DNA of 64,000 nucleotides from Candidatus Clostridium eludens (GTDB lineage Bacteria > Bacillota > Clostridia > Clostridiales > Clostridiaceae). Every line of letters starts with the position of its first letter. Within the stretch, counting starts at the first letter, position 1. Below are positions 3,494-21,978 of this stretch, piece after piece. The stretch covers positions 1-64,000 of the forward strand of contig NZ_JBJHZX010000011.1 in the NCBI RefSeq assembly GCF_045310515.1, read 5' to 3'. The notes beneath the pieces are model-generated. The model did no database searches and was not told the origin of the DNA. It saw only the letters and a list, made by a program, of their open reading frames with translations. The translations under genes were made by a program, and so were the position numbers.

Positions 3494-3630
3494 AGCCAAA
3501 AGAGCTTTATACAAGCTCTTTTGGTACACTAAAAGTGTAATTTCAAATTAACTTACAAAACAAGTTAATTTGAAATTACATACTTTCTTTAAATTGTTAT
3601 GTTAATTTATTTTATCGAGGAGTGATGTTT

Positions 3631-3771: not shown

Positions 3772-3894
3772 ATCATTATTAGGTTATAAATAGGAAATAA
3801 GAAAATTAATCTTGTAAATATAGAAAAAATTACTTATATATTTATTTAAACCAATGGATTATATAATTGATTAAACATATTAAAATTTTAATCG

Positions 3895-4326
3895 AATTAG
3901 GGGAATTGCTGATTGCAGATGATTCCTCTAGTTATTGTTTTAACAGCAGTTTATGAACCTTAAAAGAGGAAATGCACCTTTTTCTTGTTGCTTATTATTG
4001 TTTCAAAAAATAATCACAATATTTCTTTAATTTTACCTTACTGTTATTCGATACATTTTTAGATGCTTCATGTACTTTTACTGAGGAAAAGGATAAGTTA
4101 TTAAATGAAGCTATTCAACTTGGTAATTGGGATACCAGAAGATAAACTCTAGGTTATTTTTGATAGATTTAAACAGATAGATAAATCCCTTTCCAGAAAT
4201 CGTGAAGGAAGTGGTCTAAGTTTATCTATTGCAAAAGTGCTTGTAGAACTACATGATAGAACCATATCTATAAAAAGTAAGATTGATAAGGGCAGTGAGT
4301 TTATAATAGATCTTCCTATTAAGTCA
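3895..4326 (+). pseudogene. remnant of a two-component system: response-regulator N-terminal fragment and frameshifted sensor-kinase HATPase_c fragment
   Basis: The ..ELLIADDSSS.. piece at about 3900-3960 is response-regulator-like. DTRR*/IPEDKL/IFDRFKQIDKSLSRNREGSGLSLSIAKVLVELHDRTISIKSKIDKGSEFIIDLPIK at about 4063-4326 carries the G2 box and C-terminus of a histidine kinase. Frames are broken and the intervening domains are missing. Confidence 0.6.
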
Positions 4327-4801
4327 TTTTTTGATTGTCTTTTATAGTGTTATTATATTTATAAATCTGTTATTTGTACCTATTATGACTATATATGTAA
4401 AAATAGTTTTCGACAATCCTAGCTTGACTATTTTGTATATTTATTAATATATCTGATACTTTTATTCCCATAGCTTCACTGATTTGAACAATTCTTTTCT
4501 CTGGTACTGATACCGATCCTGTACCAGAAATAGTATTTACTGATATTACTGGCAGGGCAATTTAATAACTTCTTTCGGTTCTTCTTTTATGCTTTTACAG
4601 TTATTTGAATAATCTTTTCATTAATATACAATAATAAGAATTATAAGAAAAATTAAAAATTTAGAAAGTATGTTATTATGCAGTCTAACATTGATACTTT
4701 CCAGCGGCAACTGAGATTCACTCCAGTACCATGAAATGTTTCACATTAATGAAATATAAAAATAATTATATAAATATTAATAATATTAGAAGGAATTTAT
4801 A

Positions 4802-5350
4802 ATGAAAAAATTTGTTTGTACAGTATGTGGTTACGTTCATGAAGGAGACACACCGCCTGAAAAATGTCCTGTTTGTGGTGTAACTGCAGATAAGTTTATA
4901 GAAAAGACAGAAACTGGAGCAATCAGTTGGGCGGATGAGCATGTAGTTGGGATTGCCAAAGATGCAGATCCAAAGGTAGTAGAAGGGATAAGAGCTAATT
5001 TTACAGGAGAATGTTCAGAGATTGGAATGTATTTAGCTATGAGCCGTCAGGCGGATAGGGAAGGATATCCTGAGGTGGCAGAAACATACAATCCAATAGC
5101 TTTTGAAGAAGCAGAGCATTCGGCTAAATTTGCGGAATTATTAGGAGAAGTGGTAGTGGCAGATACAAAGAAAAATTTACAAATGAGAGTAGAGGCAGAA
5201 GAAGGTGCCTGTAAGGGCAAAAAAGATTTGGCGACCCTTGCTAAAAAATTAAATTACGATGCAATTCACGATACAGTACATGAAATGTGTAAGGATGAAG
5301 CAAGACACGGAAGTGTATTTCAGGGACTGTTAAATAGATATTTTAAATAA
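4802..5350 (+). CDS. reverse rubrerythrin (N-terminal rubredoxin-like domain plus ferritin-like diiron domain)
   Basis: CTVCGY..CPVCG at the N-terminus, followed by E..EEAEH / E..DEARH diiron motifs. The domain order is reversed relative to rbr. GC is visibly higher than in the flanks. Confidence 0.85.
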
Positions 5351-5403
5351 AGACTAAATGGATTATAGGTTTTTGCTTCTATGGAAATTGTTTTAGAGTG
5401 ATG

Positions 5404-5440
5404 TACTAGTTTTATATAAGGTCATTATATAAAACTAGTA
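5404..5440. terminator. perfect 16-bp inverted repeat (TACTAGTTTTATATAA-ggtca-TTATATAAAACTAGTA) downstream of revRbr
   Basis: Seen directly in the sequence. Probably a bidirectional terminator or an operator. Confidence 0.45.
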
Positions 5441-5474
5441 TACTTAATTAATTTTATGATCCTTCCAATACCAT

Positions 5475-5698
5475 TTAGGAAATTAAATTTACTAACATAT
5501 CATCTTTATGAATGCATTTCCCAAGGGTTTTTGTCCAACATGTAAAGCATCCGCTGCAGTGTTTAATATTCTTATCTTTAAGATAGATTGTCTCAATTTT
5601 TGAGCCTGCTTTTTCTGTACCTTTAAGAAATGGTTTCAAAGAACTTCAGTATTTCCTTTTTCTCCTCTTGGCCTTCCATTTAAAGCCAAAATTTTCAT
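5475..5698 (-). pseudogene. truncated and frameshifted iron-sulfur flavoprotein / NADPH-dependent FMN reductase N-terminus
   Basis: Reverse-strand translation gives MKILALNGRPRGEKGNTEVL*, then after a +1 shift LKPFLKGTEKAGSKIETIYLKDKNIKHCSGCFTCWTKTLGKCIHKDDM. This is homologous to the N-terminus of the intact paralog at 35684-36265. Confidence 0.6.
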
Positions 5699-6000
5699 TT
5701 AACTTCCTTCCAAAGTTTACTTTTTTATAACTCTTTTAAGGACTTAATAGTTTCTTCACACCACTCTCGACTTTTCTTTCAAGTCTTGTTCTTTCTATAG
5801 GTGAAAGTAATGGGGTTGATATTTGGAATAATAAGGATTTTTATTTATTTTGTATAAAATAGTGCTATTATACTGGGATAATGGTAAATTTAAATAAAGG
5901 ATAATGGTGTTGTATATAAGAATAAAAAATAAGCACTAATTAAAGGGAGCATTAACAAATAAATTGAGTTTTAGAGGCACAGAAAGGAATTATAATAAGT

Positions 6001-6864
6001 ATGGAAGATGGTACAAGTATTTTTTCCGGGTTAGAAGACTTAGGATTTGTGGATATAGACAGTATTGAAGTATATAAAAAATATGAAGAAAAAAAGACAG
6101 TGAAAGAAGAACCAAAAATAACAGAAGATATGCTTTTGTATGATAAAGAAGTGACTTGTCCAGTATGTGAACACAAGTTTTTAGTTCGTACAGTGAAAAC
6201 AACTGGTTATAGAATGAAAAAGAAGGAAAGTGATCTTTATATAAAATATGACATTATAAATCCGTACTTTTATGATGTTTGGGTATGCAATATATGTGGA
6301 TACGCTTCTATGAAGACTGATTTTCATAAGTTAAGGGAATTTGAGATAGAAATCATACAGAAAAATATTACTCCAAAATGGCGAGGAAGAAAATATCCAG
6401 CGATATACGATATTAATATAGCAATAGAGAGATATAAGCTATCGTTACTTAATTATACAATCATTGGCTCGAAATCCAGTAAAAAGGCTATGAATTGTTT
6501 GAAAATTTCATGGTTATACAGAGAACTTGGAGACATAAACAACGAGGAACTATTCAGAAAACAAGCTCTTATAGGCCTTAAAGATGCTTATTTAAATGAG
6601 CAACTTCCTGTATATGGTATGGATAATTTCACAATCTTGTATTTAATAGGTGAATTAAATAGACGTTCAGGTAATTATGATGAAGCGTTAAGGTATCTAG
6701 GGGAGGTAATAGCTTCCAGAAGCGCACATAGGAAGATAAAAAATTTGGCAATAGACCAAAGAGATTTAATAAAAGAAACATTAGAGAATAATGAAGAGAA
6801 GAATAATGAAGATGTTGTGGAAAGTAAGAAAAAAGCAGGCTTATTTTCAAGATTTTTTAAATAA
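6001..6864 (+). CDS. DUF2225-family protein (zinc-ribbon N-terminus, TPR-like C-terminus)
   Basis: Two CxxC pairs (CPVCEH, CNICGY) and conserved Clostridial DUF2225 architecture. RBS AAAGGA. Confidence 0.6.
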   Translation: MEDGTSIFSGLEDLGFVDIDSIEVYKKYEEKKTVKEEPKITEDMLLYDKEVTCPVCEHKFLVRTVKTTGYRMKKKESDLYIKYDIINPYFYDVWVCNICGYASMKTDFHKLREFEIEIIQKNITPKWRGRKYPAIYDINIAIERYKLSLLNYTIIGSKSSKKAMNCLKISWLYRELGDINNEELFRKQALIGLKDAYLNEQLPVYGMDNFTILYLIGELNRRSGNYDEALRYLGEVIASRSAHRKIKNLAIDQRDLIKETLENNEEKNNEDVVESKKKAGLFSRFFK

Positions 6865-6954
6865 GGTTGAATTTAATAATTTAATTATAGGACTACATTA
6901 TTTATTTATAGAAAAATTATTTAAAAAACTTTTCATTGGAAAGGATAATATTTA

Positions 6955-8205
6955 GTGATTAATGTATGTGTAATAAGAAAAAGGTTATCTAATAATTTTC
7001 CAGCGCTTAAAGAAAAAAATTTCAGGTATTTCTGGATAGGACAATGTGTATCTTTAGTTGGAACTTGGATGCAGAGAACAGCCCAACAATGGTTAGTGTA
7101 TAGTCTTACAAAATCTTCATTATTGTTAGGAATTTTAGGGGTGGTACAATTTACTCCAATGCTTATATTCTCTCTTTTTGCAGGGGTATTTATAGATAGG
7201 TTTAATAAGAAAAGAGTTCTTATTGTCACCCAGAGCATTTTAATGTTGTTGGCTTTTATACTATCTTTTCTAGTATGGAGTGGCGAAGTACGATATTGGC
7301 ACATACTTGTTCTTGCAGGAATAATGGGTTTTGTAAATACCGTAGATATGCCTACAAGACAATCTTTTATACCAGAAATTGTGGAAAAGGGAAGTATGGT
7401 AAATGCTATTGGATTAAATTCTTCAGTAGTAAATGTGGCAAGAATATTAGGTCCGGCAGTGGCGGGATATGTAATGGTACAATTTGGCTCTGCCTTGTGT
7501 TTTTTCTTTAACGGAATAAGCTTTATGGCTGTAATTCTAGGCATTGTTTTAATTAAACCAACTCACTTATATATGAGGAAGCAAATTGGAAATGTTTTTT
7601 TAGGTGTAAGTGAGGGTATAAAATATATTAGATCAAATAATATAATTCTAGCCGCAATGTTATCTATGTTTGCAGTAGGAACTTTTTCAATGAACTCAGA
7701 TGTTATTATTCCTGCTTTTGCAAAGGTAGTGCTTCACCAAGAAGCATCAGGTTACAGCATTCTCTTATCTGTAATGGCAATAGGTTCTTTTGTAGGAGCT
7801 GTTACTGTTGCGACTAGAGCCAGAAAAGGTCCAAGTAAAAAGTTGCTTTATGGAAGTTCGATATTAGTATGCTTTTTTCAAATCGTTTTGCTATTTGCAC
7901 ATTCCTACGTAATATCGGTAGTACTGTTAGTAGTACTCGGCTTCTTTACAGTAGTTTTTATAACTTCGGTAAATTCAACAATTCAGTTAAATACAAGTAA
8001 TGATTACAGGGGAAGAGTAATGAGTGTTTATACTTTGGCTTTTAATGGAACCACACCTATTGGCAATCTTTATGCAGGGGACATTACAGAAAAATTTGGA
8101 CCTAATTTGGGTTTTTTTAGTTGCGGCTTTATAACCTTAGTTCTTGTAATGGTGGTAATTGGATTGTTCAAAGTTAGTGTGTTTTCTAATACTAAAAGTA
8201 AGTAG
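6955..8205 (+). CDS. MFS transporter (12 TM)
   Basis: Hydrophobicity pattern and MFS-type D-R-x-G-R-K-like loop (FIDRFNKKR). GTG start. Confidence 0.8.
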   Translation: MINVCVIRKRLSNNFPALKEKNFRYFWIGQCVSLVGTWMQRTAQQWLVYSLTKSSLLLGILGVVQFTPMLIFSLFAGVFIDRFNKKRVLIVTQSILMLLAFILSFLVWSGEVRYWHILVLAGIMGFVNTVDMPTRQSFIPEIVEKGSMVNAIGLNSSVVNVARILGPAVAGYVMVQFGSALCFFFNGISFMAVILGIVLIKPTHLYMRKQIGNVFLGVSEGIKYIRSNNIILAAMLSMFAVGTFSMNSDVIIPAFAKVVLHQEASGYSILLSVMAIGSFVGAVTVATRARKGPSKKLLYGSSILVCFFQIVLLFAHSYVISVVLLVVLGFFTVVFITSVNSTIQLNTSNDYRGRVMSVYTLAFNGTTPIGNLYAGDITEKFGPNLGFFSCGFITLVLVMVVIGLFKVSVFSNTKSK

Positions 8206-8360
8206 GGTTCAACAAAATATTTGCATTAATAGTAATCCGCTTATAGAAAATTTGAAAAAATTTGAATAATATGCTTGACTTAGAGTTAACTTTAAGTGGT
8301 AGAGTATAAATAGTTATATTTTTTTATAAACCTTATAAAAAAGAATAGGAGGACTTAAAG

Positions 8361-8840
8361 ATGCCAAAAAGTCTTATTGCATTTTTTTCATATTCGGGAA
8401 ACACAGAAGTTATTGCAAATACCATAAAAGAAAATGTTGGTGGTGAGCTTTTTAAAATAGAAACAATTGAATCTTATCCAACTAATTATAATGGAGTTGT
8501 GGATAAAGCTAGACAGGAACAAAATGCCCACTACAGGCCGGAACTAGCAGCAAAAGTCACTGATATGGATTCTTATGATATAATTTATATTGGTTATCCT
8601 AATTGGTGTAGTACAATACCAATGGCGGTCTTTACATTCTTGGAATCATATGATTTTTCTGGAAAAACGATTATACCATTCTGCACACATGGCGGAGGTG
8701 GCATGGGCAGAAGCGCATCAGATATCAAAAAACTTTGTCCGAATTCAAATGTCTTAGAAGGCGTAGCAATCAGCGGAAGTAGTGTTAATAAAGCAGGAAA
8801 AGATGTATCAGCATGGTTGAGTGAAATTGGTGTTATTTAA
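8361..8840 (+). CDS. flavodoxin-family protein
   Basis: FFSYSGNTE FMN-binding loop. RBS AGGAGG. Confidence 0.8.
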   Translation: MPKSLIAFFSYSGNTEVIANTIKENVGGELFKIETIESYPTNYNGVVDKARQEQNAHYRPELAAKVTDMDSYDIIYIGYPNWCSTIPMAVFTFLESYDFSGKTIIPFCTHGGGGMGRSASDIKKLCPNSNVLEGVAISGSSVNKAGKDVSAWLSEIGVI

Positions 8841-8862
8841 GAACGCTAAGTCAAACCTTAAA

Positions 8863-8994
8863 AGAACTTATCCAGACCCGTAGCACCTCTTATCCCCCCA
8901 CTTTGATAGAAAAGCAGAGAACCAAAATTTTTAATTTTGTGTGAATCGCTTTCACAGAGTGCGATGGGGGTTAGCAATGATAGCGATGGGATAA
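8863..8994 (+). repeat. copy A of a structured 3'-of-gene repeat family (core GAACTTATCCAGG.GC.TAGCA.TGCTTATC.CCC...TTAGCAATGGTAGCG....GGATAAA)
   Basis: Lies directly after the flavodoxin stop. Outer CTTATCC/GGATAAG complementarity. Carries a roughly 50-nt insertion relative to copies B to D. Confidence 0.7.
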
Positions 8995-9035
8995 ATTTAT
9001 TAAATCAATATTTTTTAAAACAGGAGTGATTAAAT

Positions 9036-10166
9036 ATGGAAAAATCAAAAGTTTATTTTACAGATTTTCGTACAAAACTTGGAGAGGGTCTGCCTACCAA
9101 GCTAAAAAGGCTGATTAAAGATGCGGGTATCGGACAAATCGACATGGATAATAAGTTTGTTGCTATCAAGATGCACTTTGGTGAACTTGGTAACTTAAGT
9201 TATCTTCGTCCAAATTATGCTAAAGCTGTAGCCGACATGGCGAAAGAGCTGGGCGGTAAACCTTTTCTGACAGACTGCAACACCCTATATCCTGGCAGCC
9301 GTAAGAATGCCCTTGAGCATCTAGAGTGTGCATGGGAAAATGGATTCACTCCACTTACAGTAGGATGCCCTGTTATTATTGGAGATGGATTAAAGGGGAC
9401 CGATGATATCACGGTACCTGTAATAGGTGGCGAATATATAAAAGAGGCTAAAATCGGCCATGCAATCATGGATGCCGATGTGTTTATCAGCTTAACTCAC
9501 TTCAAAGGTCATGAAATGACTGGTTTTGGTGGTGCCATTAAGAATATTGGAATGGGCTGCGGTTCCCGTGCTGGAAAAAAGGATCAGCATATTAATGGTA
9601 AACCTCATATCATAGAGGAGAAATGCCGAGGATGCCAAAGATGCCATCGTGAATGTGCTAATAATGGTCTGTTGTTTGACGATGTAAAAAAGAAAATGAC
9701 TATCAACACAGAAGATTGTGTTGGTTGCGGTCGCTGCCTAGGTGCATGTAATTTTGATGCAATTCAGTTTGCAAACTGGTCAGCCAGTGAAGAACTGAAC
9801 TGCCGTATGGCAGAATACACCAAGGCAGTAGTATATGGTCGTCCTTGCTTCCACATTTCTCTTGTGGTAGATGTTTCACCTAACTGTGACTGCCACAGCG
9901 AAAATGATGCTCCCATACTTCCTAATCTAGGTATGTTCGCTTCATTTGATCCTTTGGCATTGGATCAGGCATGTGTGGATGCCTGTATGAAGGCTGCCCC
10001 ACTGGCTAATAGTCAGCTGTCCGATAACATATCAGAACCCCATTTTGTTGATCATCATGATCACTTTACTAATTCCACACCGGAATCAGAGTGGCGTACT
10101 TGTCTTGACCATGCAGAAAAAATAGGAATCGGTAATCGTGAATATGAACTGATCATTGTTAAATAA
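9036..10166 (+). CDS. DUF362-domain protein with 4Fe-4S ferredoxin-type clusters
   Basis: CRGCQRCHREC and CVGCGRCLGAC motifs inside a DUF362 scaffold. GC is markedly higher than in neighbouring genes. Confidence 0.75.
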   Translation: MEKSKVYFTDFRTKLGEGLPTKLKRLIKDAGIGQIDMDNKFVAIKMHFGELGNLSYLRPNYAKAVADMAKELGGKPFLTDCNTLYPGSRKNALEHLECAWENGFTPLTVGCPVIIGDGLKGTDDITVPVIGGEYIKEAKIGHAIMDADVFISLTHFKGHEMTGFGGAIKNIGMGCGSRAGKKDQHINGKPHIIEEKCRGCQRCHRECANNGLLFDDVKKKMTINTEDCVGCGRCLGACNFDAIQFANWSASEELNCRMAEYTKAVVYGRPCFHISLVVDVSPNCDCHSENDAPILPNLGMFASFDPLALDQACVDACMKAAPLANSQLSDNISEPHFVDHHDHFTNSTPESEWRTCLDHAEKIGIGNREYELIIVK

Positions 10167-10324
10167 AATATGTACCTCCATTAGAAGATATGGATGAATA
10201 TATTTTATAAAAATTAATTTGTTATTGACAAGGTAATCAAAAAATTATATTATTAATTATAACTTAAATAGTATGTTTTAGTAGTTGTCCATTTAAAAGT
10301 TAACGCTTAAAATTTAATATGAAA

Positions 10325-10440
10325 TTTCTTATCAAGAGTAGTGGAGGGACTGGCCCTATGATGCTCGGCAACCTGAGTATGTTTATCAATATATTCAATG
10401 GTGCTAATTCCAGCAGATGAAATCTGAAAGATGAGAGACA
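10325..10440 (+). ncRNA. SAM-I (S-box) riboswitch aptamer
   Basis: TCTTATCAAGAGTAGTGGAGGGACTGGCCCTATGATGCTCGGCAACC...GGTGCTAATTCCAGCAGATGAAATCTGAAAGATGAGAGA matches the S-box consensus nearly position for position. Putative promoter TTGTCC-17-TAAAAT at 10285-10313. Confidence 0.9.
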
Positions 10441-10451
10441 AACGGAACACA

Positions 10452-10497
10452 ACTTCCTATATAGTTTCTCTATATAGGAAGTTTTTTATTTGATTAA
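10452..10497 (+). terminator. riboswitch expression-platform terminator
   Basis: aacttcctatatag-tttctc-tatataggaagtt hairpin followed by TTTTTTATTT. Confidence 0.8.
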
Positions 10498-10597
10498 CTA
10501 GATAAACTGGAGGTCAAGTCTTGTTTACTATAGAGTTTTGTGTAGTCTCTGTAGTATATGGACTTTGACCTCTTTATTTATTATATGAAATGCCTGG

Positions 10598-10682
10598 AAG
10601 AACTTATTCAGGTGCCCAGTAGTGCTTATCTCCCATTTTCAAGAAGATGGAAGTGTTGGTAATAGCAGCGTTTGGATAAATA
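10598..10682 (+). repeat. copy B of the 3'-of-gene repeat family
   Basis: gaagaacttattcaggtgcccagtagtgcttatctccc...ggtaatagcagcgtttggataaa aligns with copies A, C and D. Confidence 0.7.
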
Positions 10683-10711
10683 ATATTATATACCTGACCG
10701 GTAAACCGGAG

Positions 10712-10748
10712 GTTACATTATTAAAAAGATGTAACCTTTTTTTGTATA
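10712..10748 (+). terminator. intrinsic terminator (ggttacatt-loop-aatgtaacc plus a T7 run)
   Basis: Seen directly in the sequence. Confidence 0.6.
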
Positions 10749-10932
10749 AATTATCAAAGGCATATATACAAATTGTCTTATAAATATTCATAGTCAAATT
10801 GTGCTAGGAGGTGTTCTAATGTTAGAAGAAGATTTGATACAATAATAGGTTGTTAAGTTGAACTGCTTAAAAAAGATAATCTGTGTCAGAAAAATTATTG
10901 AATAAATAAAAGTGAAAAATAGGGGGAAAGAA

Positions 10933-12009
10933 ATGAAAAAAAATAAAAAGTTTAAATTATCTTACTATGTAATTATGTTAATTTTATCCACAGCATTTTT
11001 TGCGGCGTGCTCAAATACAACAACATCTAATCAAAAGTCTGATGCTGTAAATGAACAAAATGCTTCAAATAATAAGAATTCTGCTAGTTCTGGTGTTACT
11101 GATCCTATTGATGGGAAGTCTGTTCCTTCACTTAAAGGTAAGAAGATAGGAGTTGCCATAGAAGGAATAAGCAATAATTGGGAGAGGCAAGCTTATCAAG
11201 CTCAAATTGATCGAATAAAACAATTGGGGGGAACAGCCATTGAAGTTAATGGCGAGCGTAATACTCAAAAACATATTTCTGATATTGAGAATTTGATTAC
11301 TCAAAAGCCTGATGCAATCATTAAGCAACTTGGAGATGCAAAAGTATATGCACCTGTACTTAAGAAGGTACGTGCTGCAAATATTCCGCTTTTTACTGTT
11401 GATCATCCTAGTGAAGATAGTATTACTAATGCTTCATCAGATAATTATTTTATTGGTGAAGCATTAGCACGTAAAATGTTTGAAGATATAGGTGGAGAAG
11501 GTAAAATTGCAGTTTTTAATGGATTTTATGGAGAGAGAACTTTAGCTATTCGTTATGATGAAATGAAATATGTGGCTAAGGATTATCCTAAAATTCAGTT
11601 TATCCAACCTGAGCTGCAGGATATTATTGATGGTACTATAGAAGATTCAAAAAAGAAGGTTCAAGATTTGTTAATAAAGTATCCTAATAAGGGAGATTTA
11701 AAAGCTATCTGGGCAGGGTGGGATATTCCTGCAATTGGCGCTTCTCAGGCTTTAGAGGCAGCTGGGAGAACTGATATTAAAGTTTATGCGGTTGATGGAG
11801 ATCCTAGTGCACTGAAAGTACTTGCGGATAAAAATTCTCCTTTTGCTGCAGATATGGCCCAACAGCCTTATAAAATTGGTCAGGCTGCAGTGGATTCTGC
11901 TGCACGATATTTAAATGGTGAAACAGTACCAAGGTCAATTTACGTAGATCCATTACTTGTTACGAAGGATAATGTACAAGATGCAGAAAAGATTTTATTT
12001 AAAAAGTAA
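10933..12009 (+). CDS. ABC transporter substrate-binding lipoprotein (periplasmic-binding-protein type 1, RbsB/LsrB-like, CUT2 family)
   Basis: Signal peptide with lipobox (AFFAAC). Type-1 PBP fold. ATG at 10933 is preceded by AGGGGG, whereas the ORF track starts at an upstream GTG. Confidence 0.8.
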   Translation: MKKNKKFKLSYYVIMLILSTAFFAACSNTTTSNQKSDAVNEQNASNNKNSASSGVTDPIDGKSVPSLKGKKIGVAIEGISNNWERQAYQAQIDRIKQLGGTAIEVNGERNTQKHISDIENLITQKPDAIIKQLGDAKVYAPVLKKVRAANIPLFTVDHPSEDSITNASSDNYFIGEALARKMFEDIGGEGKIAVFNGFYGERTLAIRYDEMKYVAKDYPKIQFIQPELQDIIDGTIEDSKKKVQDLLIKYPNKGDLKAIWAGWDIPAIGASQALEAAGRTDIKVYAVDGDPSALKVLADKNSPFAADMAQQPYKIGQAAVDSAARYLNGETVPRSIYVDPLLVTKDNVQDAEKILFKK

Positions 12010-12090
12010 ATAAGAATATCAAGACAGAGGGTAGGAATATTTTCTATTCTCTGAATAATAATTTGTGTGTAAAGGAGGGTGTATTAGTTT

Positions 12091-13614
12091 ATGAATGAAA
12101 AATATATTTTAGAAATGATAAATATAGAAAAAGAATTTCCAGGTGTTAAGGCTCTTCAAAATGTTACTTTGCAAATACGTAATGCAGAAATACATGGTAT
12201 TGTAGGAGAAAATGGAGCAGGAAAATCTACATTGATGAAAATACTGGCAGGAATTTATAATCAAGATAGTGGACAAATAAAATTTGATGGTGAAATACAG
12301 GAACACTTAACAACAAAAATGGTAGAAAAGTTGAAAATTCATTTCATTCATCAGGAAAGGTATATAGTCCCTTACCTTACTGTAGCAGAATCTTTATTTT
12401 TGGGCATTGAACCTACACATTCTATATTTAAGTTGGTAAATAGAAAATCCTTAAAGCAAGAAGCTGAAAGACTTTTAAAAGAAAAATTAGGAATTTTTAT
12501 TCGGGGAAATAAATTAATGGGAGATTTAACTGTAGGAGAACAGCAATTAGTTCAAATTTGTCGTGCATTATTGCATAATCCTAAAGTAATTGTTTTTGAT
12601 GAGCCCACTGCTGTACTTTCAAAGCGTGAAGCAGATGGGTTATTTGAAATTATAAGAGAATTGGGAGAGAAAATTTCAATTATTTATATATCTCACTATT
12701 TAGGAGAAATTTTAAATCTGTGTCATAGAATTACGGTATTACGTAATGGTAGAAAAGTTAAAACTATGGATTCTAATGGATTGAATATTAAGGACATTGT
12801 TGTAATGATGATTGGACGAAACATAGAAAAACAGTTTCCGCCTAAAAGAAGGTGGAAGAAAGAAATCTTGTTGAATGTGAAAGGATTAACTCATATTACA
12901 CATTTTAAGGATGTTACTTTTCAAGTTCACGCTGGTGAAATAATTGGCATAACGGGTTTAATAGGTTCCGGACATATTGATGTAGGCAAAGCTATTTATA
13001 ATAATAATGGGATAATTAGTGGTACCATAGAATTTCAGTGCCATCAATTATCCAATAACAAACCTGAGAAAGCGGTGGCTTCTGGAATGGCATATGTACC
13101 AGAGGATAGACGAAATCTAGGTGTAATTCAAAACATGTCTGTGAGAGAAAATATAATGCTTTCGTACTTAAAAAGAGTAAGCAGAAAAGGTGTAATTAAT
13201 ACTAGGGATGAACATAATAAAGTGGACGATATAATAAAAAAATTAAGGATTAGTACTCCAAATCAAGAAATATCAGCAGGACTGCTGAGTGGTGGAAACC
13301 AACAAAAGGTTGTAATTGGAAAGTGGCTAAACAGTGAATCTAAGTTGTATATACTAAATGAACTAACTTCAGGTGTAGATATAGGTGCTAAGGTTGAAAT
13401 TTATTCTATCATAAATAATTTAGCCGGGAATGGTGCAGGAATAATTTTAATTTCACAGGACATACAAGAATTGGTTGGCTTATCTCATCGTATTTTTGTA
13501 ATGTACCGCGGCAAAATTGTAAATGAGTTTCATGGGAACAATACTACAACAGATGAAGTATTTGTTTCTATGATGGGGGGGAATAAAAATGACTCAGTTA
13601 ACATCAAACATTAA
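12091..13614 (+). CDS. ABC transporter ATP-binding protein with duplicated ATPase domains (RbsA/MglA-like)
   Basis: Walker A GENGAGKST. 507 aa with two ABC domains. Confidence 0.85.
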   Translation: MNEKYILEMINIEKEFPGVKALQNVTLQIRNAEIHGIVGENGAGKSTLMKILAGIYNQDSGQIKFDGEIQEHLTTKMVEKLKIHFIHQERYIVPYLTVAESLFLGIEPTHSIFKLVNRKSLKQEAERLLKEKLGIFIRGNKLMGDLTVGEQQLVQICRALLHNPKVIVFDEPTAVLSKREADGLFEIIRELGEKISIIYISHYLGEILNLCHRITVLRNGRKVKTMDSNGLNIKDIVVMMIGRNIEKQFPPKRRWKKEILLNVKGLTHITHFKDVTFQVHAGEIIGITGLIGSGHIDVGKAIYNNNGIISGTIEFQCHQLSNNKPEKAVASGMAYVPEDRRNLGVIQNMSVRENIMLSYLKRVSRKGVINTRDEHNKVDDIIKKLRISTPNQEISAGLLSGGNQQKVVIGKWLNSESKLYILNELTSGVDIGAKVEIYSIINNLAGNGAGIILISQDIQELVGLSHRIFVMYRGKIVNEFHGNNTTTDEVFVSMMGGNKNDSVNIKH

Positions 13615-14584
13615 AATATCAAAACGTACTAATATTTTATTAAAATACAGTGGATATATAGTATTCCTTGTTTTAGCTATATTTTTCTCAATTATTTCAC
13701 CATCTTTTTTAAAATTACAAAATTTAATCAATATCTTAAATCAATGTAGTGTCTTAGCAATTGCTGCAGCTGGAATGACTATTATATTAATTGGCGGAGG
13801 TACTCATGTTATTCAAGGAGGAATTGATTTATCATTAGGAAATAATCTTGCAATTATTAGTACTATTACAGCAGTGTTAATAAGTAAGAACTATTCTTTT
13901 TTCACTATACTGGTGATAATTGTATCATGCAGTTTATTTATTGGTTTGATAAATGCTGTTATGATTGTAAGGCTTAGGATAATACCCTTGCTTGCAACAT
14001 TGTCAATGATGTATTTATTACAAGGGGTAGAACTTTTAATTTCTGGCAACAAACCAATAAATGTATCAAACCCTATGTTGAGTTTTCTTTCAAATGGTAA
14101 TTTTTTATTTTTGCCAAGCTCTGTATGGGTATTTATATTGGTAGAAATAATATTATATCTACTTTTAAATCGGTCAGTCTTTGGAAATTGGATAAATGCT
14201 GTAGGTGGAAATCCTAAGGCAGCGATGGTATCAGGTATTAATGTGAATTTTATTTTATCAGTAACCTATATTATTGCCTCAATTGTGACTCTAATTGCTA
14301 GTTTATTAGCTACAGCTAGGTTATCCGGCAGTGTACCAGGTACGGGAGATGTTATGTTGTTTGATATATTACTTGCAGCTTATATGAGTGCTGTTTTTTC
14401 ACGGACTTTTATACCTAATATTCCGGGAGCGATTCTTAGTTCATTATTTGTTGAAATGCTTACAAATGGGTTTACTTTAATAAATGTCCCCACATACTGG
14501 GTCTATGCTGTTAAAGGAGCATTAATATTATTAACTGTAGCAATTAGCAGCAAACAGCAAAGGAGGTTGGAGCAATATGTCTAA
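13589..14584 (+). CDS. ABC transporter permease (RbsC-like)
   Basis: Polytopic membrane protein. Overlaps the ATPase gene by 26 nt. Confidence 0.8.
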   Translation: MTQLTSNIKISKRTNILLKYSGYIVFLVLAIFFSIISPSFLKLQNLINILNQCSVLAIAAAGMTIILIGGGTHVIQGGIDLSLGNNLAIISTITAVLISKNYSFFTILVIIVSCSLFIGLINAVMIVRLRIIPLLATLSMMYLLQGVELLISGNKPINVSNPMLSFLSNGNFLFLPSSVWVFILVEIILYLLLNRSVFGNWINAVGGNPKAAMVSGINVNFILSVTYIIASIVTLIASLLATARLSGSVPGTGDVMLFDILLAAYMSAVFSRTFIPNIPGAILSSLFVEMLTNGFTLINVPTYWVYAVKGALILLTVAISSKQQRRLEQYV

Positions 14585-15605
14585 ATCATCAATTAAAAAT
14601 TTATCAAACTATAGTAATGGTGTAAGATTGAAAAATAGTTTAGTACGCTATAGTACCATTATAGCATTAGTGATATTGATTATGGGACTTTCTATTGTTA
14701 CTCCCAAATTTCTTAATCCCGGTAACTTAGTAAATATTTTGAGTCAATCATCTATACTTGCACTGGTAGCAGTAGGATTATGTTTAGTTATTGCTACCGG
14801 AGGACTGGACCTTTCTGTAGCAGTAGCATTTGATGTGGGGGGGATGGTATCAGTATTGTTATTACAAGGAGGATTTGGATGGTTAACTGCTATTATTTTT
14901 GGACTGCTTGCAGGAGTTGTCATAGGAGTTTTTAATAGCTTTCTAGTATTAAAGATTAAAATTACAGTTTTTTTAGCTACATTAGGAACTCTTTTTATTG
15001 TACAGAGCATTGAAAGAATTATTACTGAAGGAGGAACACCGGTATATTTACCAGATATGGATGAAGTCTTCAAATTTTTGGGACGTGGAAGTGTATTTGT
15101 CATACAAAAAGGAAGTCAAATCGATTTTAAATTTTCCATAGTTATTGCTCTTCTTGTAGCTTTATTTATACACCTGCTGCTTAAGCGAACTGTGTTTGGC
15201 AGATATTTATACGCAATTGGATCTCAAAAAGAAGCAGCAGAACTTTCTGGTGTTCCAGTTGGCAGATATACTCTCTATGCTTTTATACTTTGCAGTGTAA
15301 TATGTTCATTTGCAGGTATTATTGCTTCGTCCGCTTTGACATCATATGTCCCTCTCAGTGGTAATTACTATTTGATGGACGGCATAGGTGCTGTTTTTAT
15401 CGGGAGTACTTTAAATGAAAAAGGTTTTGTTGATATACCAGGTACATTAATTGGAGTGTTGTTTTATGGAATTGTATCTAATGGACTTAGTCTGGTAGGG
15501 ATCAATTTTTACTGGCAAAGTGTAGCTCATGGACTTCTCATGTTTTTTATATTAATATTGAATTCATATAGATTAATTTCTATTAAAAAGATATGTCTTA
15601 GTTAG
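14577..15605 (+). CDS. ABC transporter permease (RbsC-like), second copy
   Basis: Polytopic membrane protein. Overlaps the preceding permease gene by 8 nt. Confidence 0.8.
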
Positions 15606-15657
15606 ATTATTGTATTTGTTTTACGTGATATTGCTATTATATAAGGAGGTTAAATTA

Positions 15658-16143
15658 ATGGGAAAAATTGTTTTTGCAGGTGGTTGTTTCTGGGGGGTTG
15701 AAGCCTATTTTAATACAGTAAAGGGAGTGCTTTTTACTAAAGTTGGATATGCTAATGGTAATACGGAAAATCCAACATACGAACAAGTATGTAAACATAC
15801 AACAGGCTTTGCAGAAGCTTGCTATATAGAATATGATGACAGCATTATAACACTAGAACAATTACTTGGTGACTATTGGAAAATAGTTGATCCTACAATA
15901 AAAGATAGGCAGGGTCACGATATAGGAAATCAGTATCGCACAGGTATTTATTATTTTAATGAAAAAGATGTTGAAATAATAAAAAAATCTAGAGAGAGTG
16001 AACAAGAGAAATATGAGAAAGTTATTGTAACTGAAATAGAACCTCTAAAAAATTTTTATGATGCAGAGGAATATCATCAAAAATATTTAGATAAAAATCC
16101 AAATGGGTACTGTCATATTCCAAAAGAATTATTAATAAAATGA
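15658..16143 (+). CDS. msrA: peptide methionine sulfoxide reductase MsrA
   Basis: [18 protein letters not shown] active-site motif. RBS AAGGAGG before ATG 15658. Confidence 0.9.
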
Positions 16144-16157: not shown

Positions 16158-16262
16158 TCAAGTGGGGGATAAGCACTGCTGCGCACCTGGATAAGTTCTT
16201 CTCCTAAAGGATAACGTATTCTAAGTGCTAAAGACACTAAGAATACTGTTAATAAGGTTCAG
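16158..16262 (-). repeat. copy E (reverse orientation, truncated) of the 3'-of-gene repeat family
   Basis: The reverse complement is nearly identical to 44338-44440 (gaaccttattaacagtattcttagtgtctttagcacttagaatacgttatcctttagg.gaagaacttatccagg.gcg.agcagtgcttatcccccactt). Sits directly 3' of the minus-strand gene 16338-17480. Confidence 0.75.
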
Positions 16263-16337
16263 CTGGAGAGAGTCATCCTTATAAGCAAACTCCATCTGAA
16301 CCTAAGAATCACTTGATTGAGAACATATATTGATACA

Positions 16338-17480
16338 TTAGTTACCTGTATTTTCGGTGGTTCCACCTGTTGATGTATTTGTATTTCCAGTGGTTCCATT
16401 TGTTGATGTGTTCGTGTCTGTATTTTTAGTGGTTCCATCTGTGGATGTATTTTCATCTGCATTCTTAGTTGTTTCGTCTGTAGATGTATTTTTATCTGTA
16501 TTATCAGTGGTTCCATCTGTGGATGTCTTTGTATCTGTATTTTGGGTGTTTCCGTCTGTAGATGTTTTTGTATCTGTATTTTTGGTAGTTCCATCTGTAG
16601 ATGTATTTGTATTTTTGGTATTTTCATCTGTGGATGTCTTTGCATTCCCATTTTTAGTTGTTCTACCTGTAGATGTATTTTTACCTGATGAACCCGTTGC
16701 ATCAGTGGATTGTTCTTGAACAGTGGTTTTTATATCGGGAGTTTGTGTATTAGTAGGTATTCTTTTAAAATAAGATTTTACTAAAACACCGGCAATCATA
16801 ACTAAAATGATTGATACAATTGTTATTATTGCCTTTTTACTCTTACTAGGTCTCTTATTTCTATTGGGTACTTTTCTATTTCTTTTATTTATTGTTTTTT
16901 CAGTCCTTGATACTTTATCCATAACTATTGTAAAGTCATCTTTTTTATTAGGAACCATTGTCTTAGTTTTTTTCGTTCTGTTTAAGATTATTTCATTTAT
17001 ATTTTTAGGTATATTAAACAATAAGGCTAGTATCCCATTTTGTTCTACAGAGTCTATCTCCTTAAAATTTTCAGGTGATCTAATTGTAATAACAGGCTTA
17101 TTATACACTCCATGTTGATTTTCTACATATAATGTAACTGAAAATTTATCACCCTTACCTAAAAAAGGTATATAGATATCCAAAATGCTATCTTTTATTG
17201 AAGAATCAAATTTTAAACCTTTTGTTATTTTGGCATCTGTAATCCTTAAGTTATTTTGTGGACTTTGTATATTTAGAGTTAGTTCATGAATTATTTTGTT
17301 TGATATATTGCTAACAGTAATAATGTATGCACGAATCTTTTTACTGTTTATTTCCATAGGTATAGCATTGCCTATGTTACATAGTATTCTGGGTGCTAAA
17401 TTTTTATAATAATCTAACAATAAACCAGATATAAATGATATTATTATAGTTATAATTGCAGTTTTAATAATGCTTATCAT
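16338..17480 (-). CDS. membrane-anchored hypothetical protein with a C-terminal Thr/Asn/Asp-rich 13-aa tandem repeat array
   Basis: Two TM helices. Repeats of the TSTDGTTKNTDTK type are encoded by a 39-bp tandem repeat at about 16350-16700. Start is probably the internal ATG, preceded by AAGGAAG. Confidence 0.55.
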   Translation of the reverse strand: MISIIKTAIITIIISFISGLLLDYYKNLAPRILCNIGNAIPMEINSKKIRAYIITVSNISNKIIHELTLNIQSPQNNLRITDAKITKGLKFDSSIKDSILDIYIPFLGKGDKFSVTLYVENQHGVYNKPVITIRSPENFKEIDSVEQNGILALLFNIPKNINEIILNRTKKTKTMVPNKKDDFTIVMDKVSRTEKTINKRNRKVPNRNKRPSKSKKAIITIVSIILVMIAGVLVKSYFKRIPTNTQTPDIKTTVQEQSTDATGSSGKNTSTGRTTKNGNAKTSTDENTKNTNTSTDGTTKNTDTKTSTDGNTQNTDTKTSTDGTTDNTDKNTSTDETTKNADENTSTDGTTKNTDTNTSTNGTTGNTNTSTGGTTENTGN

Positions 17481-18367
17481 ATTAATTTTCGCTTCCTTAT
17501 TTTTTACCATTATACAACTAAATTATAAAGTAGATAGATATTTGTGTCAAATTTAAAGATTGGTTACTATGAAATGTAATGATTGAATATCTCACTTATA
17601 TTCAAGGAATGCTTCAAAGTATAAAGAAGTGTAATTATGAAAGTTATAGTTTAACTTAATAATAATTTTAAACTTGAAATTAACTTCTAGATTGGTTTCA
17701 GGTTTTATTTTGGTTTGTAAAATATAAAAAGCAAAGGGGCATAAAGATTTACCTTACACCAATATAAATAATTTAATATCTAGTTATAATCCCTTAAATC
17801 ATATTAAATATGATTTTTAAAACCATAACTAAACAGTTCACCACCCATATTAATGATTCGTTCGACCATACAACATACCTACACAGCTATATACAACCCT
17901 CTAGCTGTATATAACCATCTCAGCACCCTGGATGATCTTCGCTGGACCCTATACAATAATTTGGGATCCCATTATAATCAACATAATTAACCATAATGAA
18001 ACCTTTCATCAACATATAAGATCTACCTTAAACCGTATATACAAGATTTTTAACTCTTAATGTAAATCCTACAAAAATTTGTGATTAAACATATTTTTAT
18101 TATCTACTCTACTAAAATTATTAAAAAAACATATACAGTTTAGGGCTAGCTTATATATGCTTTTTAGCATATATAAGCTTTGGCTCAATCCTCATGTCCT
18201 TTACATTATTTAATATGCCCTAGCATAAAAAAATAATTCAAAAATTTTTATGTAATTTAATCCAAATATTTAAAACTTACTATTTAGCAGGAATTTTTTC
18301 TTTTTTAGAGAATTTTAATGTTATATAATTGCAAGTACAATGGCGTTGGTAATCTAGTTTAAAAGGG

Positions 18368-19518: not shown

Positions 19519-19860
19519 ATGGATACTAGTTCTTCTAGTGACAACATCAATAAAGAAAATGCTGAAAATTTATATGAATTTGAACAGCCTATATATTGTC
19601 CATATTATCGACCAATAAATTATGAATACGTAGATGCCATAGATACAGATTCAGATGATGAGTATTTTGACGATAATGATTTTGATGATTTTGATCTTGG
19701 ATATAGGCACGGAAGTGGTAGAAGGCGCAGACGCAGAAGACACAGACGTAGGAGGCATAGACCTTTATCTTGCCATCATAAATCTTCTCGTTACAGACCT
19801 TGCCCATTCTACTCAAGACCATTTGAACTATATTATGGATGTTGTGATGACTGGTATTAA
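19519..19860 (+). CDS. 113-aa protein with an acidic patch, a poly-arginine tract and a Cys/Tyr-rich tail
   Basis: Strong RBS GGAGG. DDEYFDDNDFDDFD, then RRRRRRRHRRRRHR, then CPFYSRPFELYYGCCDDWY. Confidence 0.6.
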   Translation: MDTSSSSDNINKENAENLYEFEQPIYCPYYRPINYEYVDAIDTDSDDEYFDDNDFDDFDLGYRHGSGRRRRRRRHRRRRHRPLSCHHKSSRYRPCPFYSRPFELYYGCCDDWY

Positions 19861-19861
19861 A

Positions 19862-19944
19862 AACTTATCCAGGCGCATAGTACTGCTTATCTCCCGCTTT
19901 GAAGAAGGTGGGAGTATTAGCTAATTACTGCGTTGGGATAAGGG
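19862..19944 (+). repeat. copy C of the 3'-of-gene repeat family
   Basis: Begins 2 nt after the stop of the 19519-19860 ORF. acttatccaggcgcatagtactgcttatctcccgctt...gcgttgggataag. Confidence 0.7.
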
Positions 19945-20059: not shown

Positions 20060-20370
20060 CATCAAAGAAAAAATGATGATGGAGACAAGTAAAAAAAATA
20101 TTTCACCAACAGTGAGCTTGGGGATAGTGTGAACCCAGTGGCAGAGTTTTTTTGAATAACACTCCGGAGATGCAAACTGAAATATTTGTAGACTGTACTT
20201 TAAACAAAATGTTTGATACAGGTTCAGTAGATAAAGTAGGGGAGTCGTATTCCATGCGTTATTTGGATACCAGTAGTAGCTGGAAAGAGACCAAATATGG
20301 TAAATTAGGTGGCACCACGGATAAGCGTCAATTCGTCCTATTATTAAGACGAATTGACGCTATTTTTATA
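20060..20370 (+). ncRNA. T-box riboswitch leader of asparagine synthetase
   Basis: T-box-like AAATTAGGTGGCACCACGG at 20302-20320, followed by a perfect terminator gcgtcaattcgtc/gacgaattgacgc plus TATTTTTA. The roughly 330-nt leader is open in the asnB frame, which explains the artificially long ORF-track call. Confidence 0.6.
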
Positions 20371-20388
20371 TCTAAGGAGGAATATAAT

Positions 20389-21978
20389 ATGTGTACAATT
20401 ATGTGTTATACGGGAACAGACATAAAACATGAAAAATTTGTAGGGGCATTGCAGAGAACTGAATCCAGGGGACCAGATATGATGGGGATTCTCACTTTAC
20501 CATCTGGTATTTTGGGGTTCCAAAGACTCTCTATTATGGATTTAAGTTTTAGCGGAATGCAGCCATTTACAAGGAAAATGGATGCCTCCATATGTAACGG
20601 TGAAATTTACGGCTTTCGTGAAATTAAAAAGGAACTAATAGAAAAGGGACATAAGTTTATTTCAGATAGTGATTGTGAAATATTACTTCCTATGTATTAT
20701 GAATATGGACTAGATATGTTTTCAAAATTAGATGCAGAATATGCAGCGATTATCTACGATGGAGAAAAGGACAGTTACATTGCAGCACGGGATCCCATTG
20801 GAATTCGTCCTTTATTCTATGGCTATTCTGGAACAGGTAAAATCATATTTGCAAGTGAGGCAAAAAATTTAATTGGTCTTACAGATAAGATTATAGCGTT
20901 TCCACCAGGACATTATTATGCTGACGGTAAATTCACATGTTATTGTGATATTGCAGCAACAGAGGGTGATTATTGCAAGGACGACTTGAAAGTTATTTGT
21001 AGTGAAATTCATGATAAATTGGTAACTGGTATAGAAAAACGTATGGATGCTGATGCTCCTGTAGGTTTCTTGTTAAGTGGTGGTTTAGACAGCTCATTAG
21101 TATGTGCAGTCGCTCAAAAAATGTATCCTGAAAAACCAATTAGAACATTTTCTATAGGTATGACTGAAGATGCAATTGACTTAAAATACGCACAGGAAGT
21201 TGCAGATTACATTCACAGTGATCATACCGTTGTGTACATGATAAAAGAAGAAGTGCTTGCATCACTTGATGAGGTTGTTAAAATTCTTGGAACATATGAT
21301 ATTACTACAATAAGAGCAAGTATTGGAATGTATTTGATTTGCAAGAAAATACATGAGATTTCTGATATCAGAGTGCTTCTGACTGGTGAAATTTCTGATG
21401 AATTATTTGGCTATAAATATACTGATTTTGCCCCAAGTGCAGAAGAATTTCAAAAGGAATCACAAAAGAGAATACGGGAGCTTTATATGTACGATGTACT
21501 TCGTGCAGACCGCTGCATCAGTTCAAATTCTTTAGAAGCAAGGGTACCATTTGGAGATTTAGATTTTGTAAAGTATGTTATGGCCATCGACCCTGAAAAG
21601 AAACTAAACAAATACAATATGGGTAAATACCTTTTGAGACATTCATTTGAAGGTGATTATCTGCCACGTAATATTTTATATCGTGAAAAAGCAGCATTTA
21701 GTGATGCTGTAGGGCATTCTATGGTAGACTATTTAAAGGAATATGCAGAAACATACTATGGTGATGAAGAATTTGAAAAATCATGTGAAAAGTATAAATA
21801 TCACTCTAAACCATTCACAAAAGAATCATTATTATACAGAGAAATTTTTGAAAAATACTATCCAGGACAAGCGGAAATGATAGTAGGATTCTGGATGCCA
21901 AACAAAGCATGGGAGGGCTGTGACGTAGATGATCCTAGTGCCAGAATATTATCCAATTATGGTGCCAGCGGTAAATAA
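20389..21978 (+). CDS. asnB: asparagine synthetase, glutamine-hydrolysing (class II GATase N-terminal Cys plus PP-loop SGGLDSS)
   Basis: MCTIMCYTG gives a Cys2 nucleophile. LLSGGLDSSLV PP-loop. RBS AAGGAGG before ATG 20389. Confidence 0.85.
   Translation: MCTIMCYTGTDIKHEKFVGALQRTESRGPDMMGILTLPSGILGFQRLSIMDLSFSGMQPFTRKMDASICNGEIYGFREIKKELIEKGHKFISDSDCEILLPMYYEYGLDMFSKLDAEYAAIIYDGEKDSYIAARDPIGIRPLFYGYSGTGKIIFASEAKNLIGLTDKIIAFPPGHYYADGKFTCYCDIAATEGDYCKDDLKVICSEIHDKLVTGIEKRMDADAPVGFLLSGGLDSSLVCAVAQKMYPEKPIRTFSIGMTEDAIDLKYAQEVADYIHSDHTVVYMIKEEVLASLDEVVKILGTYDITTIRASIGMYLICKKIHEISDIRVLLTGEISDELFGYKYTDFAPSAEEFQKESQKRIRELYMYDVLRADRCISSNSLEARVPFGDLDFVKYVMAIDPEKKLNKYNMGKYLLRHSFEGDYLPRNILYREKAAFSDAVGHSMVDYLKEYAETYYGDEEFEKSCEKYKYHSKPFTKESLLYREIFEKYYPGQAEMIVGFWMPNKAWEGCDVDDPSARILSNYGASGK

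Follow-up and report, generated by a model that had tools for sequence, protein, structure and literature searches.

A SAM-I riboswitch in front of a CUT2-type importer operon in Candidatus Clostridium eludens: a probable ancestral leader and a possible route for organosulfur uptake

Introduction

Why should a riboswitch for S-adenosylmethionine (SAM) stand in front of a sugar-type transporter? The question is raised by a stretch of 64,000 nucleotides from Candidatus Clostridium eludens (assembly GCF_045310515.1, contig NZ_JBJHZX010000011.1, positions 1 to 64,000 of the forward strand; hereafter, the window), in which a SAM-I riboswitch is followed by the genes of an ATP-binding cassette (ABC) importer of the CUT2 type and by msrA. 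A first, sequence-only reading of this DNA left several answers side by side: control of the operon in cis through read-through, a riboswitch orphaned by the insertion of a repeat, or an RNA acting in trans. In what follows, sequence elements, synteny and gene associations are reported as observed; read-through control in this strain and the class of substrate are inferred from them, and any exact substrate is a guess. The riboswitch itself is ordinary; the unusual part is its cargo, a conserved sugar-type importer operon. The best overall explanation, which we consider fairly probable, is that SAM controls in cis an importer linked to organosulfur compounds.

The riboswitch and its expression platform

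The leader of the operon contains the following elements.

10225..10253, + strand: sigma-70-type promoter, TTGACA at 10225, 17 nt, TATTAT at 10253 (11 of 12 matches; kept in the alignment with Clostridium kluyveri)
10326..10437, + strand: SAM-I (S-box) riboswitch aptamer (RF00162 match, fold)
10451..10491, + strand: T1, expression-platform intrinsic terminator, 14-bp stem and T run (terminator scan, fold; kept in C. kluyveri)
10509..10573, + strand: H2, long AU-rich hairpin followed by a U-rich tract (fold energy; counterpart in C. kluyveri at 9825-9888 of locus L081)
10596..10690, + strand: copy of a dispersed intergenic repeat (repeat comparison), in leader sequence that C. kluyveri lacks
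10708..10746, + strand: T3, terminator-like hairpin and T run adjoining the repeat in the extra segment (terminator scan, fold)

The aptamer matches the Rfam SAM-I model (RF00162) over its full length (model positions 1-108) with 87.3 bits against a gathering score of 44.4 (E 2.4e-19). The minimum-free-energy fold of 10320-10500 forms the four-way junction (P1-P4) and then a 14-bp terminator hairpin with a U run, so that score and architecture, a four-way junction joined to an intrinsic terminator platform, both place the element in RF00162. A permissive-threshold Rfam search of the leader returned no RNA family besides this aptamer. The terminator scan locates the T1 stem at 10451-10483, with the T run behind it, and flags two sites in the leader (10451-10483 and 10708-10739) where 0.1 would be expected from shuffled sequences. 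An S-box aptamer at 10325-10440 with its own terminator, as proposed by the sequence-only reading, is thus borne out, and the gap of about 420 bp that it gave between terminator and operon agrees with the roughly 440 nt from T1 to the start codon. Its promoter did not survive: the -35 box proposed at 10285 sits in a 27-nt segment that C. kluyveri is without, and the promoter common to both species is the TTGACA/TATTAT pair further upstream.

The operon behind the riboswitch

Five genes follow the leader.

10933..12009, + strand: lipoprotein substrate-binding protein, Peripla_BP_4, lipobox FFAAC (domain search)
12091..13614, + strand: fused double ABC ATPase, two ABC_tran domains; best matches XylG and RbsA, below cut-off (domain search)
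13589..14584, + strand: permease 1, BPD_transp_2 (domain search)
14577..15605, + strand: permease 2, BPD_transp_2 (domain search)
15659..16143, + strand: msrA, methionine-(S)-S-oxide (methyl sulfoxide) reductase, last gene of the operon (PMSR domain; TIGR00401)

A Peripla_BP_4 protein, a fused double ATPase of about 500 amino acids and BPD_transp_2 permeases together define a CUT2 importer, and the domain searches confirm the gene content first described, from lipoprotein binding protein to msrA. MsrA reaches 207.9 bits with TIGR00401, against a cut-off of 108.1. Its start is most likely ATG 15659 and not TTG 15610, since a ribosome-binding site (AAGGAGG) lies at 15645 and the resulting protein has 161 amino acids, as in C. 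kluyveri. In Clostridium sp. WILCCON 0269 the binding protein has a 100 % identical counterpart; the homologue in C. kluyveri is 84 % identical. None of the NCBIfam equivalogs for named sugars is reached: RbsB gives 77 bits versus a cut-off of 337, XylF 46 versus 390, RbsA 456 versus 745, and RbsC 146-171 versus 398.

The same leader in relatives

C. kluyveri shares all five genes and their order, msrA included. A SAM riboswitch scoring 94 bits lies at L081 9648-9756 and is followed by a terminator, H2 and the start of the binding-protein gene at 10002. Between the promoter and the end of H2 the two leaders are nearly identical, and since the succession promoter-riboswitch-T1-H2-binding protein is common to both species, this layout is best regarded as ancestral. 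The sequence-only reading had suggested looking in relatives for a met gene directly behind the riboswitch; C. kluyveri has the orthologous transporter gene there, so that the link between riboswitch and operon stands.

The association extends beyond Clostridium. An Rfam scan of related loci detects SAM riboswitches upstream, and on the same strand, in four Bacillaceae loci with this transporter. In a Bacillus metagenome-assembled genome (L004), a promoter, the riboswitch (4408-4505), a terminator and about 190 nt precede the ATG of the binding protein. In Neobacillus soli the riboswitch is followed by genes for a 2-hydroxyacid dehydrogenase and an FGGY kinase and then by the transporter. In B. 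timonensis and Bacillus sp. FJAT-50079 it heads an operon that combines SfnB and/or DmoA-type monooxygenases with the transporter, and the terminator scan flags no strong + strand terminator further along these two operons. Clostridial and Bacillaceae loci form one clade in a neighbour-joining tree; 6 of the 12 loci of this Clostridium/Bacillales clade have the riboswitch, and these six represent four different gene arrangements. No riboswitch of any class was found by Rfam in 16 proteobacterial, 3 gut-type, 2 actinobacterial and 1 Chloroflexota loci, so that regulation of the proteobacterial loci is presumably protein-based.

From this comparison, it is very probable that the riboswitch is the ancestral cis-acting leader of the five-gene operon. 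The cis reading was therefore partly right, the data from C. kluyveri and the four Bacillaceae pointing to an ancestral cis leader. As to orphaning by an insertion, the extra repeat-bearing sequence is indeed present in this strain, but the riboswitch is no orphan, the same leader being found in C. kluyveri. Read-through control in this strain would proceed as follows. Transcription would start at the conserved promoter, near 10260. With SAM bound, T1 would form and the transcript would end near 10490. When SAM is scarce, RNA polymerase would read on into the operon for the binding protein, ATPase, two permeases and MsrA.

Sulfur genes around the transporter family

Neighbouring genes were clustered in 85 loci and the recurrent families were then annotated; clusters such as c6, c7 and c13, which lie on the opposite strand at the places where an ATPase or permease gene would be expected, mainly in proteobacterial loci, were taken for antisense shadow open reading frames (ORFs) and ignored. 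FMN monooxygenases of the NtaA/DmoA type occur in 48 of the 85 loci (578 bits; cut-off 280) and SfnB-family oxidoreductases in 45 (611 bits; cut-off 431). Counting genes on the same strand and at most three genes away from the transporter, the DmoA type is found in 39 loci and SfnB in 22. This flanking spans three classes of Proteobacteria as well as the Firmicutes, and genes for MetQ/MetI-like transporters and SsuD are also recurrent neighbours. Going by the established biochemistry of the related enzymes DszC, DszA, DmoA and SfnG, the DmoA-type and SfnB families oxidise sulfides and cleave carbon-sulfur bonds. Import of a methionine- or sulfur-related compound, unusual for a CUT2 system and suggested by the sequence-only reading, is thus strongly supported by gene context across phyla.

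The anaerobe C. luticellarii (80 % identical) offers a different set of neighbours, in the order SsuA-like ABC system, two NifD/K-like genes, a NifH-like gene, the transporter, and DmsA-, DmsB- and DmsD-like genes. The run occupies one strand (L001 3-16303), and no SAM riboswitch was detected in the 17 kb examined. It looks like an anaerobic organosulfur-acquisition island. The DmsA/YnfE-family molybdoenzyme scores 945 bits against a cut-off of 778; its gene occupies the position that msrA has in the window and in C. kluyveri, which puts an S-oxide reductase in the same slot. Among nitrogenase-like systems, methylthio-alkane reductase cleaves thioethers and isethionate reductase cleaves sulfonates, in both cases as a source of sulfur (PMC13474568, PMC12552129). 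The C. luticellarii genes may be of either type: they were at first read as a methylthio-alkane reductase, but isethionate-reductase-type systems also exist (PMC13474568) and an SsuA-like transporter adjoins. In C. kluyveri, msrA is followed by genes for two O-acetylhomoserine sulfhydrylases, an alpha/beta hydrolase and an SsuA-like protein. O-acetylhomoserine sulfhydrylase converts methanethiol to methionine (PMC13474568).

The connection with yoaDCB

The N. soli kinase provides a link to B. subtilis. Its best homologues are FGGY kinases of the B. subtilis group (56-57 % identity), and one at 48 % bears the UniRef name "YoaC". The B. subtilis locus consists of a divergent molybdopterin oxidoreductase gene, a SAM riboswitch (88 bits), and genes for a 2-hydroxyacid dehydrogenase, an FGGY kinase and a carrier of the major facilitator superfamily (MFS), i.e., yoaE / S-box-yoaD-yoaC-yoaB. 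N. soli shares this arrangement down to the divergent molybdoenzyme, except that the CUT2 system stands where B. subtilis has the MFS carrier YoaB. Such a carrier swap inside an otherwise conserved operon is good evidence that the CUT2 system and YoaB carry the same compound. Operons of the yoaD-yoaC type are present in N. soli and L004, and the window contains no yoaD or yoaC homologue. The MFS version has a riboswitch in Peribacillus; in Paenibacillus the MFS version is present and a riboswitch was not detected. In B. subtilis, yoaB and yoaC are members of the S-box regulon and are induced by methionine starvation (PMC5519356), and for the function of these two genes there are only guesses (PMC2885750).

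Some further observations concern this gene family. In L004, a second SAM riboswitch (1476-1564) heads yoaD-like and yoaC-like genes just upstream of the transporter, giving two riboswitches within 3 kb; since each unit has its own riboswitch, the yoaDC-like genes and the transporter appear to be controlled separately. A YoaE-like molybdopterin oxidoreductase gene is divergent from yoaD in four genera of Bacillales (L088 1584-3626, L084 4926-6965, L089 3541-5589 and L090 3479-5569, all on the - strand). In NCBIfam it comes closest to the DmsA/YnfE subfamily, with 314 bits where the cut-off is 778, a hint that S-oxide reduction may also be part of the yoaDCB system. In Chitinophaga (Bacteroidota; L091 3636-11468), YoaD- and YoaC-like genes are clustered with those for a second FGGY kinase, an MFS carrier, a glycerophosphodiester phosphodiesterase and a histidine phosphatase; the gene for a DeoR-family regulator is divergent, and there is no riboswitch. 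The YoaD/YoaC pair is thus not tied to sulfur everywhere.

The ligand and the substrate

The family of the binding protein includes two crystal structures, PDB 3L49 (E 2.5e-90 against the window protein) and 4WT7 (E 6e-89). The latter is Avi_5165 of A. vitis with bound allitol (PMC10318746), from which it follows that the pocket accepts an open-chain, polyol-like molecule. Rhizobial members of the family are about 90 % identical to 4WT7, and the genes of several of them adjoin SfnB and/or DmoA genes. A polyol as ligand, enzymes acting on thioethers and sulfoxides as neighbours and control by SAM together suggest that the substrate may be a sulfur-bearing polyol or pentose, of the organosulfur class, a proposal to which we give about an even chance.

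As to the exact compound, 5-methylthioribose or its sulfoxide is our leading guess; that it is 5-methylthioribose specifically is doubtful. More speculatively, the substrate could be a methylthio-pentitol that YoaC and YoaD would convert to methylthioribulose 1-phosphate. In the proposed scheme, a methyl thioether, for instance 5-methylthioribose, or the corresponding sulfoxide would enter through the importer; reduction of the sulfoxide form would fall to MsrA, and the sulfur would end in methionine.

Extended to the whole family, this leads to a tentative proposal, which we would place somewhat short of even. Widespread from Clostridia to Rhizobiales and Enterobacterales, the CUT2 system could be an unrecognised route by which a sulfur-bearing sugar or polyol is taken up and fed into three interchangeable carbon-sulfur modules: the SfnB/DmoA oxygenases in aerobes, YoaD/YoaC in Bacillaceae, and nitrogenase-like enzymes with S-oxide reductases (MsrA or DmsA-like) in anaerobes. 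Candidates would be methylthioribose, its sulfoxide and a methylthio-pentitol.

The leader between T1 and the operon

H2, which the sequence-only reading had not mentioned, folds with -32.8 kcal/mol (z -5.3) in this strain and with -32.1 kcal/mol (z -7.5) in C. kluyveri, and in the alignment of the two leaders the substitutions on both arms preserve the stem. Possible roles are those of a second terminator and of a processing site. Since C. kluyveri also has H2, and nothing else before the gene, read-through of this hairpin must be normal.

Beyond H2 the two leaders part. The spacer from H2 to the start codon of the binding protein measures 358 nt here versus 109 nt in C. kluyveri, i.e., about 250 nt more, and the local alignment score of the two spacers (22, against 20.9 +/- 3.1 for shuffles) amounts to no detectable similarity and marks out no boundaries of an insertion. 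The extra length contains the repeat copy (10596-10690) and T3, whose stem (10708-10739) gives, in the fold of 10690-10760, -17.5 kcal/mol (z -3.1). Both the second terminator and the copy of a "3' repeat" downstream of the riboswitch that had been reported from the sequence are confirmed in this segment, the former by the terminator scan and the latter as a member of a dispersed family. The extra sequence may weaken the coupling between riboswitch and operon or may add to it; a weakening is suggested by the longer spacer with its repeat and third terminator-like hairpin. No sigma-70-like promoter was found in a scan of 10746-10932.

The repeat occurs five times in the window, always between genes: at 8862-8905, 10596-10690, 19859-19941 and 44280-44486 on the + strand and at 16160-16317 on the - strand. 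Its core, AAGAACTTATCCAGGCGC..GCTTATCCCCC...GGATAAA, is closed by a short inverted repeat, and the long form measures about 160-200 nt. One of the long copies lies behind the operon.

16160..16317, - strand: long-form repeat copy between msrA and the convergent gene (92 % identical to 44280-44438)

The core was not found in the C. kluyveri and C. luticellarii loci, and a long copy matched no described RNA family in Rfam. The first 66 nt of the long form (44280-44345; 16252-16317), which form a hairpin of their own, have an 89 % identical stretch in C. kluyveri (L081 2862-2927, - strand), just 3' of a gene for a PLP enzyme of Cys/Met metabolism. The repeat may be a small mobile element or a structured RNA.

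Weighing the explanations

Several observations weigh against cis control by SAM of an organosulfur-linked importer. At the level of the leader, a clear antiterminator helix was not found: by eye at most about 7 bp can be drawn (GAGAGAC with GUUUCUC), a pairing absent from the computed folds. H2 and T3, both terminator-like, stand between T1 and the operon, and SAM control in this strain is accordingly a prediction. In the DNA examined, no riboswitch was detected in six of the Firmicutes loci, among them that of C. luticellarii. At the level of the substrate, allitol, the sole ligand seen in a member of the family, is sulfur-free. Methylthioribose is reported to enter B. subtilis via MtrA (YfnA) and the ribose transporter, YoaB not being named (PMC5743806), which weakens the methylthioribose guess. 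Two groups of loci have no sulfur context: the gut-type loci (L009-L011), with a DeoR/LsrR-like regulator, a class II aldolase and a kinase, and the 3L49 clade, with short-chain dehydrogenase/reductase and aldehyde dehydrogenase genes. In the window itself msrA is the sole sulfur-processing gene. A homology search of the 64 kb for YoaD, YoaC, class II aldolase, SfnB, DmoA, SsuD, O-acetylhomoserine sulfhydrylase and MetQ found none, and when the genes of the C. kluyveri and C. luticellarii loci were sought there, only the transporter and msrA proved to be in common.

Two alternatives concern the riboswitch. It could be functionally uncoupled in this strain, H2 and T3 stopping all read-through, the operon having its own promoter 3' of 10746 and the riboswitch yielding a short terminated RNA only. 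Three consecutive terminator-like hairpins in the leader and the long, dissimilar spacer with its repeat and T3 would fit such a state. However, the promoter scan is empty in the very interval concerned, H2 precedes the gene in C. kluyveri too, and the aptamer, at 87 bits, is fully intact; we regard uncoupling as unlikely. That the terminated transcript acts in trans as a small RNA, like Listeria SreA, is a most improbable alternative. A riboswitch with its own promoter and terminator, and further hairpins before the operon, would lend itself to this role, but nothing in the sequence points to a target, the conserved synteny already accounts for the riboswitch, and a role in trans would leave cis control standing.

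The other alternatives concern the cargo, and the closest competitor is a transporter already predicted by others. Import of methylthioribose (MTR) was predicted long ago for a ribose-like ABC transporter that has an S-box in B. cereus and, in enterobacteria, MetJ boxes (PMC3228920, PMC4239095), and the present system could be this MtnABC/MtrACB/MtnXYZ transporter of the S-box and MetJ regulons. The SAM riboswitch upstream in six loci is what S-box control requires, and SfnB, DmoA, MsrA and DmsA-like neighbours would suit a methylthio-sugar. Yet the described system has three genes with one permease (PMC3228920) and lies beside mtnK and mtnA, whereas the family considered here has two permeases. 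Moreover, the recurrent neighbour families annotated here did not include MtnK or MtnA, no B. cereus protein is among the best 120 homologues listed, and the ligand in the crystal is an open-chain polyol. Identity with the predicted MTR importer is therefore rather unlikely. An ordinary importer of a polyol or sugar (allitol, ribitol or ribose), with the riboswitch as an incidental neighbour, would explain why the best Pfam and NCBIfam hits are sugar transporters, why 4WT7 binds allitol and why the gut-type and 3L49-clade loci resemble carbon catabolism. We judge it very unlikely, given the SAM riboswitch in front of six loci with four gene arrangements, SfnB/DmoA flanking in about half of the loci, and the failure to reach any sugar equivalog cut-off (RbsB at 77 of 337). 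Import of methionine sulfoxide or of autoinducer-2 (AI-2/DPD), both considered in the sequence-only reading, is equally hard to credit. In its favour are the co-located msrA, the FGGY kinases of related loci, whose best match is the AI-2 kinase model, and an LsrR-like regulator match in one type of locus. AI-2 contains no sulfur, and with it as substrate SAM control and the SfnB/DmoA neighbours would be left unexplained. The kinase matches reach 126-164 bits against a cut-off of 528, and the Lsr models stay far below theirs (LsrA 324 versus 586, LsrC 96 versus 388, LsrD 76 versus 500; no match for LsrB). The window is without lsrK, lsrR, lsrF and lsrG, related loci show only weak LsrK- or LsrR-like matches, and neither LsrF nor LsrG is among the annotations of the recurrent neighbours. 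As an amino acid, methionine sulfoxide differs from the polyol in the crystal; the rhizobial members of the family are about 90 % identical to the allitol-bound protein, and separate MetQ/MetI-type genes adjoin the system in several genomes.

Other features of the window

Upstream of the riboswitch (1867-10166) lie several redox- or sulfur-related genes, for which no link to the operon is established: a metallo-beta-lactamase/rhodanese fusion (1867-2973), rubrerythrin (4802-5350), an MFS_3 transporter (6955-8205), a flavodoxin (8361-8840) and a DUF362 4Fe-4S protein (9036-10166). Convergent with msrA is an ORF of 390 amino acids (16338-17510, - strand) with no Pfam match, the 3' part of which is made of about ten tandem repeats of 39 nt (13 amino acids) at 16337-16720. 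A T-box leader (20067-20343, 95.9 bits) precedes an asparagine synthase gene (20389-21978); the longest ORF (20152-21978) overlaps this leader, so that the true start is probably ATG 20389. The ORF at 32802-33740 (- strand) contains six tandem repeats of 126-129 nt (about 42 amino acids) at 32797-33527 and probably encodes a repetitive surface protein.

Significance and comparison with known systems

S-box regulons are well charted, yet the B. subtilis yoaDCB genes have no assigned function, and many "sugar ABC transporters" beside sulfur-starvation genes are blindly annotated as ribose transporters. Here, one transporter family with two crystal structures is the meeting point of a SAM riboswitch, MsrA, sulfur-acquisition monooxygenases, nitrogenase-like reductases and YoaDC. 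If the reading of this family as an organosulfur importer is correct, it would reveal organosulfur compounds of a new class as environmental nutrients and an anaerobic path to methionine, and the identity of the ligand would give yoaDCB a function as well. Taken by itself, the window yields something more modest, an ordinary riboswitch whose leader has gained repeat-bearing sequence.

Among known systems, the crystallised proteins 4WT7 and 3L49 belong to the same binding-protein family. They are structural-genomics entries without physiological assignment, and allitol may be a stand-in ligand. The sulfur-starvation clusters contain the same enzyme families (SfnB, DmoA/NtaA, SsuD) that flank this transporter in Proteobacteria and Bacillales. 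However, the known clusters use binding proteins of the Ssu/Tau or MetQ type, and a CUT2 importer is not among the components described in the literature searched; a search for work that connects a sugar ABC transporter with SfnB or methylthioribose found no characterised member. The predicted MTR transporter is likewise a ribose-like ABC importer placed in the S-box or MetJ regulon by comparative genomics and never characterised (PMC3228920); by its description, it differs in its linkage to mtnK and mtnA and in its single permease. The yoaDCB system of B. subtilis is approached most directly in N. soli and L004, where a SAM riboswitch heads yoaD- and yoaC-like genes in company with this transporter. 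With the SAM-I attenuators of Firmicutes, finally, the riboswitch shares the full-length aptamer, the four-way junction, the adjacent terminator, the sigma-70-type promoter and the methionine/sulfur-linked operon. It departs from them in that the leader holds two more hairpins, the conserved H2 and T3 in the extra sequence, and in that the operon to be regulated is not met, cys or metNIQ but a CUT2 importer together with msrA.

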